DNA from: Escherichia coli
Lineage (GTDB): Bacteria > Pseudomonadota > Gammaproteobacteria > Enterobacterales > Enterobacteriaceae
Length of the DNA stretch: 64,000 bases
Strand: one strand, 5' to 3'
Assembly: GCF_044647545.1 (NCBI RefSeq)
Contig: NZ_CP172818.1
The notes beneath the pieces are model-generated. The model did no database searches. It was not told where the DNA came from and was given only the letters and a program-made list of their open reading frames with translations. A program made the position numbers and the translations under genes. Of this stretch, positions 38,666 through 41,203 are shown piece after piece. How positions within the stretch are numbered: the stretch's first letter is position 1; the number at the start of each line of letters is the position of its first letter.

Positions 38666-38995
38666 TGTTATTTATCGTGAGATATTGCGTGAATAATATT
38701 TTTTCATTGAAAAACAATATAGTAGGGAGCTATTGGGTGGTGGCAAGGTGTTTTATGCTGTTATTTTTATGTGCATTCTGTGCCTCCTGAATTATCACGT
38801 AAAAATCAGACCTTAAAATATCATTATTAGTACGCGGTTATTTACTTTGAACGCATTTATAAAATTATTACATAAAAATAGCGAATATTGCTAAAATCCC
38901 CGCCAACGATGTGTTGACGGGGCTGTGATTATTTTGGCAATAATACCCCGGCATAAGTATTTACCGGATGAGAAAGATATTGTTTAACGCGTTAA

Positions 38996-39379
38996 GGGGG
39001 GGGGGAGTGAATGTCATTCTCGAGCTCTTTATTCGCTGCCGCTCCGCAAACAGTAACCTTCCACCTTCTCCCATCCACCACCGGCCCCTCGCCTCGTAGC
39101 CGGCCGGCGAGCCCCGGCAGCCAGCATGGTCTCTGCCGGGGTACGGGTGTGGTCAGGCCCCTACTGCCCTCTGCGGGGGGGGGGGGGGGGGGGGGGGGGG
39201 GGGGGGGGGGGGGGGGGGGGGGTGCGGTCGGGTCGGCGTTGTGCTCCCGGGGGGGGGGGGGGGGGGGGGGGGGGGGGGGGGGGGGGGGGGGGGGGGGGGG
39301 GGGGGGGGGGGGGGGGGGGGGGGGGGGGGGGGGGGGGGGGGGGGGGGGGGGGGGGGGGGGGGCCTCAGGCAGGGGGGGG
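38996..39379. repeat. cluster of G homopolymers (10, 48, 114 and 8 nt) separated by short GC-rich spacers
   Basis: Counted directly: G-runs at 38996-39005, 39175-39222, 39249-39362 and 39372-39379; an overlapping XhoI/SacI site (ctcgagctc) lies at 39019-39027. Confidence 0.95.
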
Positions 39380-41203
39380 AAACCGAGTAATAATGGGATA
39401 TAAGGTAATGGTGAAAAAAGGATAAACGAAAAATAAGAAAGTCTATGTATGAATACGCGCTGGAACCCATGCGGTGGCCTGCCTGCAATTTGCTAAATGT
39501 TGGCTTCAGTTAACTTTATCGTTGAGTAGATAATGTAATTGTCTTGGATAGAAAAATGTGATGTAAATGTCTATATTAAAAAGATTTTAGGATGAAAATA
39601 AACTTGATGATTAAAAAAGGCTAAAAGTAAACTAGAATGAAAATTACCAATGTAACATATAAAAATGGTGAATAAACTGATAAGGTGGGAGGAAGAAAAA
39701 TAATGATAGGAATGTGCTATTCATAAATAATATCGGGTCGGTGAGAATTGATAAATTATATGTATCCGATAGATAAAAAATGATAAACTAAGAGGGTAAT
39801 GGAATTAGTATAATGAGGTAAGTAAAATAATTGATATGATCAGAGTGATGGCTGCTATCATGAAAAGTAGTTACTGAATTATGGTCTGTAAGGTATGTAG
39901 CTCTGGGGGCATAAATTAAATAAAAGAAACTATGTTCTGAGAAAAGAAATTATTATTAATAAAATGCATTGTGTAATGATAAAAATAGTTTTTGGCCTGC
40001 ATAGCGTTGTTGATAGTGAATAATTTAGGAAAAAATAGGCCAGCAGAGTGGGTTCCCTGGTCGCGCTGTCTTTGTTTGATGAACTCTTTCAGAGTGCTGT
40101 CATCATCATTTTTCATGAGTAAACTGCGACTCTTTTCAAGGTAAAAACAGTAATCAATTTGAGATTAATTGAAAACTGGAGGGCTGGCTCCTGCATTCTG
40201 CTCCTGCCGGGCTTTTTGATTTGTTAATTTTGATTTATTGTAGGGTGGCTGGCTGCTGTGATAAACTCTTTAAGCTTGCATCTTTTAACGACCTGCGGAT
40301 TGGGGGGCAAGGTTATTTTTGCTTAGATCGTGTTGTAGATAACTGATGTTTTCTACTGTATAGAAAGGAATAATCGTTTTACGTATAGAATTGGCTTAAG
40401 TCTGTGTTGGGGTTATGCGGGTAATTTGACTGATGGGAAAAATTTGGGTAATTTCAGAATGGAATATTTCTGTAAACAGTGAGAATAAGAGGTTATCAGG
40501 TAGATTTTTATGTGGCTGCTTTTTTATCTGCAACAGGGCAGCAAGGAAACGCCATCAGCTTAAGGTCTTTGGAATGCTGATATGGCTGATAAGAGCTGTA
40601 GGTAAAATCATTGGGAAATAGCTGTATAATTACGGGTGAAGTCACAATAAAATTGGGGTGTGAGTGCGGATAGGTCTGACTTTAAGCCTGCCGAGCGGCA
40701 AGGACATCGATAACGCACATTATGGAGGTAAAGAGAATAATTGTATGATACTGTCCGTCAGTTGTCGAGAATGCGTAACCTGATAAGAATAGGAAGCGTA
40801 GTAGTTACTTACTCAGATAATGCTTTGATTGATCAGGTGAGGATTATTTGGCAGGTCGGAGCTTTAAGCAGGTAGCTTGGCTGGTGTGTGGCGATAGTGT
40901 TGGTGTGCGTGGGGTTGAAGTTGGGTGCCTTGGGGTGTGTTGGTGGGGGTGTCTTGGAAGTAAGAGAGAAAAAGTGGGTGAGTGAAGTAGTAAAAGAGAA
41001 GAGAAGAAGGGAAAAAGTAAAGGTTAAGTAATTGAAAAAATGAATAAAATGAGAAAATGGAATTGAGATAAAATAATATGAAAGGTTATGAAATGATAAA
41101 TATGTGATGAATGTATTATTTATTAATAAATATATCGCCTAAAAACAACGCGGGGCAGGGAATGACTGCATTTAATTTTTAGTAGGGTGCGTGGTGACTC
41201 TCG
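39380..41203. other. ORF-free block with strong strand asymmetry (C-depleted, A/G/T-rich on the plus strand); nature unknown
   Basis: No ORF of 70 aa or more on either strand in about 1.8 kb; positions 40981-41100 contain no C at all. Confidence 0.9.

Follow-up and report, generated by a model that had tools for sequence, protein, structure and literature searches.

The aberrant block at positions 38990-41220 of the window, i.e. the whole 64-kb stretch of Escherichia coli DNA that was analysed, is most probably (at roughly 0.87) an artefact of technical origin, which renders the native 10.5-kb pqqL-yddB-yddA-ydeM-ydeN interval at very low quality and is no faithful copy of any DNA molecule. 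The corrupted rendering is stitched between essentially error-free flanks, in register at least on the right side. The flanks are identical to those of relatives that have ordinary sequence between the same two points, derivation from the native sequence by an error process unlike natural mutation is evident, and the block is absent from independent isolates. On either side of the block, at 34000-38985 on the left and 41230-46000 on the right, the window matches a dozen ST648-type genomes at 100.0% identity, among them FDAARGOS_497 (NZ_CP033850.1), ST648, MS6198 and ECONIH1, and these relatives hold five genes in this place. We do not regard the block as an element of biology.

The limits of the block are the first and the last base that deviate from the closest genomes when both flanks are walked inward. 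They correspond to positions 1005 and 11470 of the extract of the FDAARGOS_497 locus (L002), and identity is perfect again from 41221 onward. Between the two points the window holds 2,231 nt and the ST648-type genomes hold 10,466 bp; in FDAARGOS_497 the interval between the flanks contains pqqL (annotated at L002 944-3727 on the minus strand), yddB, yddA, ydeM and ydeN. The YdeN, YddA and YddB proteins are the same in three ST648-type genomes, and YdeM is the same in two of them, with the ydeM of the third annotated as frameshifted. The initial annotation was right that an aberrant block is present and, as written, that it lies between the gadB promoter and ydeO; its limits of 38994-41203 are to be replaced by the exact ones, and the block ends inside ydeO and not before the stop of that gene. 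Natively, the place is that of 10,466 bp with five genes, pqqL is truncated by the damage with its tail left intact, and the description as ORF-free intergenic DNA hides five garbled or missing genes, about 10.5 kb in all.

The compositional features reported initially, namely the G10, G48 and G114 runs, the ctcgagctc motif and about 1.8 kb of C-poor, strand-skewed sequence, are present as described. The G10 lies at 38996-39005, the G48 at 39175-39222 and the G114 at 39249-39362, and a shorter run, G8, follows at 39372-39379; the window has zero G or C runs of at least 8 elsewhere and zero A or T runs of at least 9 in its 64 kb. The ctcgagctc motif is located at 39019-39027, and a GC island at ~39006-39175 is composed of 39% C, 25% G, 21% T and 14% A. 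The GC skew stays between +0.3 and +0.9 over 39100-41200 and is close to 0 outside, while the chance of a C-free stretch of 176 nt, as found in sub-block D (Table 1), is 0.75^176 or ~1e-22. Besides the G runs, a tandem-repeat scan of the block yielded only two low-complexity arrays, both weak, and the window contains zero ambiguity characters (N). The GAD box lies to the left of the left junction at a distance of ~325 nt, in line with the about 330 nt given before. The claim that the block has no ORF of 70 aa or more fails literally, as mechanical ORFs of 130, 99 and 111 aa cross the G homopolymers, and stands for 39490-41203, where the longest ORF is 66 aa.

Table 1 Sub-blocks of the aberrant block and the adjoining native sequence, from left to right in window coordinates.
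Feature	Position	Strand	Basis
3′ end of pqqL, last 61 nt intact, last native sequence before the block	38929-38989	-	100% identity to FDAARGOS_497 up to L002 1004
Sub-block A, unalignable 395 nt, 60% G: G10, GC island, G48, 26-nt spacer, G114, G8	38990-39384	.	no detectable match
Sub-block B, degraded ydeM (~39385-40195) and 3′ two-thirds of ydeN (~40215-40869)	39385-40869	-	colinear with L002 8235-10222
Sub-block C, 90 nt, 83% G+T, in place of ~850 nt of the ydeN 5′ third	40870-40959	-	global alignment, L002 ~10222-11095
Sub-block D, ydeN-ydeO intergenic spacer minus every C, 176 nt	40960-41135	.	alignment and composition
Sub-block E, recovery zone with scattered deletions and substitutions, including the ydeO stop and last two codons	41136-41220	-	last mismatch at 41220

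The block consists of an unalignable left part and a readable right part. Sub-block A occupies the place of ~7.2 kb that comprise pqqL, yddB, yddA and the 3′ tip of ydeM. The remainder, 39385-41220, is colinear with L002 8235-11470, i.e. with ydeM, ydeN and the ydeN-ydeO spacer, by BLAST and by global alignment; BLASTN against other E. coli genomes, which the initial annotation had proposed as a check, assigns this part to native genes and finds at least 80% of the block in 0 of 5,426. In an exact-subsequence span test, successive 40-mers fall in colinear order on the reference, and z relative to shuffled sequences reaches -13. G and T make up 50% and 33% of sub-block C. At the right end the stop and the final two codons of ydeO are changed, and the window YdeO accordingly has 256 aa versus 253 aa in the native protein and ends in SALGL followed by three further residues, where the native one ends in SALAI; the altered protein has no record in a large protein-position index.

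The damage in the readable part consists mostly of deletions. In the alignment of 39386-40869 to FDAARGOS_497, 60% of C, 27% of T, 14% of A and 15% of G are lost. The loss rate of C is 60% in single C and in runs alike, and that of T is 14% at isolated T and climbs to 47% where at least four T stand in a row. Deletions occupy 19-21% of the alignment columns and mismatches ~3% (1-3% in clean context), with at most one insertion in ~1.5 kb; about six clean-context substitutions are seen against all references alike, and C>G changes amount to 2 among the 145 C of one aligned segment. More than 1,400 reference bases, mostly C and T of one strand, are deleted in ~3.2 kb. Bases are retained in the order G and A, then T, then C, and the worst stretches keep mostly G and T and then G alone. 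By chi-square, the loss is strongly over-dispersed over the length of the block, with P=1.6e-5 for C and 6e-35 for the remaining bases, and such over-dispersed, run-dependent loss behaves like fluctuating signal quality.

Sub-block A gave no comparable signal when searched against the 7.2 kb that it replaces, with z of -1.2 to +1.8 against shuffles in a deletion-tolerant local alignment and the exact-subsequence span test and z=6.1 for the positive control; at such compression, a derivation from pqqL, yddB and yddA could not be proved even if true. BLAST of 39006-39178 returned zero matches among the 5,426 E. coli genomes and only chance-level ones among 72,556 plasmids, BLAST of 38990-39400 returned zero matches among phages, and sub-block A had zero matches when GTDB species genomes were scanned twice for exact 28-mers. 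The idea that the G-rich part at the left is foreign or vector DNA was rejected on these E. coli, plasmid, phage and GTDB searches, none of which gave a match beyond chance. The left junction also carries a TTAACG/CGTTAA palindrome, which arises because native GCAGTGTTAA lost four bases; a fold-back or hairpin chimera was considered for it and dismissed, as a reverse-complement control was without signal.

The alleles of the readable part switch close to the right junction. At clean informative sites the block has the non-ST648 allele, one shared by K-12 and other lineages, at 9 of 10, and from 41229 on, nine bases beyond the block end, the ST648 allele is present at all 9 of 9. Under a looser site filter, non-ST648 versus ST648 alleles in the block number 12-13 versus 2-4, and the total of clean mismatches is 13 against each of three ST648 references versus 7-9 against K-12 and three other lineages. 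Judging from these sites, the template of the readable part is neither the allele of the flanks' lineage nor that found in the closest relatives. The possibility that K-12 in particular served as template, through laboratory contamination or a reference-guided fill, was rejected, as K-12 is not favoured over two other lineages (2:3 and 1:2 versus L001 and L006, respectively). The boundary of quality is at the same time a boundary of ancestry, which is easier to reconcile with a patch taken from other data than with poor reading of the DNA of the isolate itself, while a recombinant tract that ends at the end of the block by coincidence may be an alternative source of the non-ST648 alleles.

A look-up of the exact HipA of the window led to two GenBank genomes of 4.67 Mb each, CP092815.1 and CP092703.1, neither of which is part of the RefSeq-based collection of 5,426 complete genomes; among NCBI genomes the exact protein is confined to these two, and it occurs besides in a few metagenome contigs. 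Both are 99.4-99.5% identical to the window over 19 kb and have the same local structure with a ydeT fragment, a yneL fragment and hipBA. Their ydeN-ydeO region is intact, of ST648 type and 99.5-99.9% identical to that of FDAARGOS_497. Most of the differences between the window and the two genomes are single N, of which CP092815.1 has 81 and CP092703.1 has 48 in 21 kb, and most of the N in both are single characters that either replace a base or are inserted, at CCWGG (Dcm) sites and where homopolymers begin. In our reading, this pattern points to consensus pipelines of the nanopore type behind the public data of this lineage.

Outside the block, the window has about ten small differences from FDAARGOS_497 in ~60 kb, along with three structural differences that look natural, and by this comparison its sequence is of high quality everywhere but in the block. 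The hipA and hipB genes, both missing from FDAARGOS_497, are present and intact at 49160-50766, with HipA identical to the K-12 protein at 437 of 440 residues and hipBA 97.8-99.6% identical to K-12, and the surrounding 2.6-kb region (48300-50900) is at most ~97.4% identical to any of the 5,426 complete genomes. At 47146-48975, a K-12-like 382-aa usher fragment (ydeT′) adjoins a fragment of an HTH regulator (yneL′) with the junction at 48372, where 4.6 kb of FDAARGOS_497 are missing that hold the N-terminal part of the usher, a chaperone and a fimA-like gene into which IS2 is inserted; the arrangement is alike in CP092815.1 and CP092703.1 and looks natural. In the LRR-protein and porin region, 12296-12896 of the window, 642 nt and ~1.5 kb of FDAARGOS_497 are absent, which leaves an ORF for a 96-aa porin fragment, presumably the length of K-12 YddL, and a 444-aa LRR ORF. 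Finally, a 4-nt (CTAG) difference at 51484 lies in a large autotransporter gene that is annotated as frameshifted in FDAARGOS_497, and it may restore or change the reading frame in the window. The K-12-like ydeT′, yneL′, hipBA and yddL-like fragment raised the question of a K-12-guided consensus for the entire window, which was rejected since hipBA is only 97.8-99.6% identical to K-12 and two genomes share the structure.

The most likely origin of the artefact would be a consensus of single-molecule long reads, probably nanopore, or a patch made to fill a gap, for which only a handful of reads, all from one strand, were at hand. A consensus or filtering step would have dropped the columns in which no base could be called with confidence, and the resulting patch would have been too corrupt for short-read polishing to mend. 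The G runs would then be the extreme of the same failure, with positions of no information called as G, and not real homopolymers. Given the non-ST648 alleles at the readable sites, the patch probably goes back to reads or template of a lineage other than that of the flanks. The specific platform and pipeline are a tentative assignment, which we hold at somewhat below even odds. Raw long reads normally carry insertions and more mismatches too, and the near deletion-only profile points more to a consensus or filtering step than to a raw read as such. Several features strain such a mechanism. The C-rich GC island does not fit a simple rule by which C is lost first, and together with runs of the length of G114 it is not fully accounted for by dropped columns; we know of no way in which nanopore or PacBio data emit a G114. 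The non-ST648 alleles need an extra assumption, be it template from a contaminant or other foreign source, a patch drawn from a different assembly or a tract of recombinant origin.

A close rival, which is a variant of the artefact verdict and not a biological alternative, is data handling after sequencing, where N or other IUPAC characters, numerous in the record or consensus of a low-coverage region, were stripped, producing the deletions, or recoded, producing the G runs, or where the sequence was otherwise corrupted in silico. The near deletion-only profile, with its one insertion and clean-context mismatches of 1-3%, would agree with such handling, as would the scattered N in the assemblies of the closest relatives set beside their absence from the window, and the absence of the altered YdeO and of the block from the public collections searched. 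However, stripping of N makes no G114 and recoding of N to G makes no deletions, so that two operations would be needed, and the ~6 clean-context substitutions against all references show that real miscalls are present too; we consider data handling unlikely. An assembly or sequencing artefact was already the top-ranked candidate of the initial annotation, and the colinear, deletion-riddled native genes between perfect flanks bear this out, but not the two-colour chemistry offered as its mechanism. NextSeq and NovaSeq instruments are documented to yield poly-G tails, in which bases turn into G by substitution in short reads (fastp paper, PMC6129281), and G48 and G114 are both shorter than a 150-nt read. 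Yet the process acts at fixed cycle positions and cannot delete, whereas here deletion has removed 60% of C and 27% of T, C>G changes affect only 2 of 145 C in one segment, and the damage spans 2.2 kb into which 10.5 kb are compressed, which is not the pattern of substitutions to G, free of indels and within one read length, that no-signal cycles assembled into a contig would leave. As the sole source of the block, two-colour poly-G is very improbable and could at most account for the G runs.

Readings in which the string is real DNA fare worse. It is extremely improbable that pqqL-ydeN was physically replaced by an error-ridden copy templated on the allele of another lineage, an example of a route being cDNA-like or lesion-bypass synthesis that skips template G, stalls into homopolymers and is integrated by homologous recombination at ydeO; if true, this would explain why the damage is strand-asymmetric, why the alleles are foreign and why the right junction is in register. 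An engineered scar, i.e. a deletion of pqqL-ydeN with a cassette remnant and a lower-ranked candidate of the initial annotation, might be read from the MluI, XhoI and SacI sites that cluster within 40 nt of the left junction, but the MluI site there is native TTTAACG followed by native GCAGTGTTAA minus four bases. The FRT, loxP, pKD P1/P2, M13, T7, Tn5 ME, adapter and vector motifs that were searched for are absent from the block, the plasmid matches are at chance level, and neither recombinase or priming sites nor marker or vector sequence was found. Moreover, the ~1.8-kb "insert" consists of decayed native genes minus their C residues, which corresponds to no plausible design, and it damages the ydeO stop; the probability of engineering is vanishingly small. 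The same holds for natural DNA, be it a pseudogene region in extreme decay or a novel non-coding element that bears giant G tracts, the latter also a candidate of the initial annotation. The string does exist in the window and is strand-asymmetric like some real elements, but it would require more than 1,400 one-strand deletions in ~3.2 kb beside ~60 kb of flanks that are 99.99-100% identical to relatives, and we know of no mutational process that deletes C from one strand at 60% density. At a coverage of at least 80% the block is found in 0 of the 5,426 complete E. coli genomes, it is absent from the closest relatives as well, and it has zero matches to Rfam families at E<=1; the substitutions with mixed indels, the flank-like divergence and the sharing among relatives that mark a natural pseudogene are likewise not seen.

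Taken as an artefact, the block is without biological significance, and its value is that of a quality flag for the source record. The record misrepresents ~10.5 kb, with pqqL, yddB, yddA, ydeM and ydeN seemingly absent and YdeO given a false C-terminus, and could mislead analyses of gene presence and absence, pangenomes and the acid-resistance locus, while annotation would yield a false YdeO variant. The combination of perfect flanks, colinear deletion-only decay, one-strand loss of one base and giant G runs is a signature that can be screened for.

The known categories nearest to the block are technical ones, namely long-read consensus errors and poly-G no-signal calls. The block resembles the two-colour poly-G artefact (PMC6129281) in its long pure G runs without biological precedent in E. 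coli, but that artefact consists of substitutions within reads of 150-300 nt and the block of deletions over 2.2 kb. The native locus in K-12, b1493-b1499, has the order gadB-pqqL-yddB-yddA-ydeM-ydeN-ydeO, which is the same in the ST648 genomes; the window agrees with it in the flanks and in the colinearity of 39385-41220 with ydeM, ydeN and the ydeN-ydeO spacer, and departs from it in that 10,466 bp are reduced to 2,231 nt with zero translatable genes and an unrecognisable left 395 nt. Errors of low-coverage or unpolished long-read consensus differ from those of the block in their density, which is expected to be below 1% in low-coverage long-read assemblies and is 20-90% here, and the context-independent dropout of C and the G48 and G114 runs are likewise foreign to them. 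The block nevertheless shares with such consensus errors the dominance of deletions, the compression of T homopolymers, the strand asymmetry and the perfect polished flanks.
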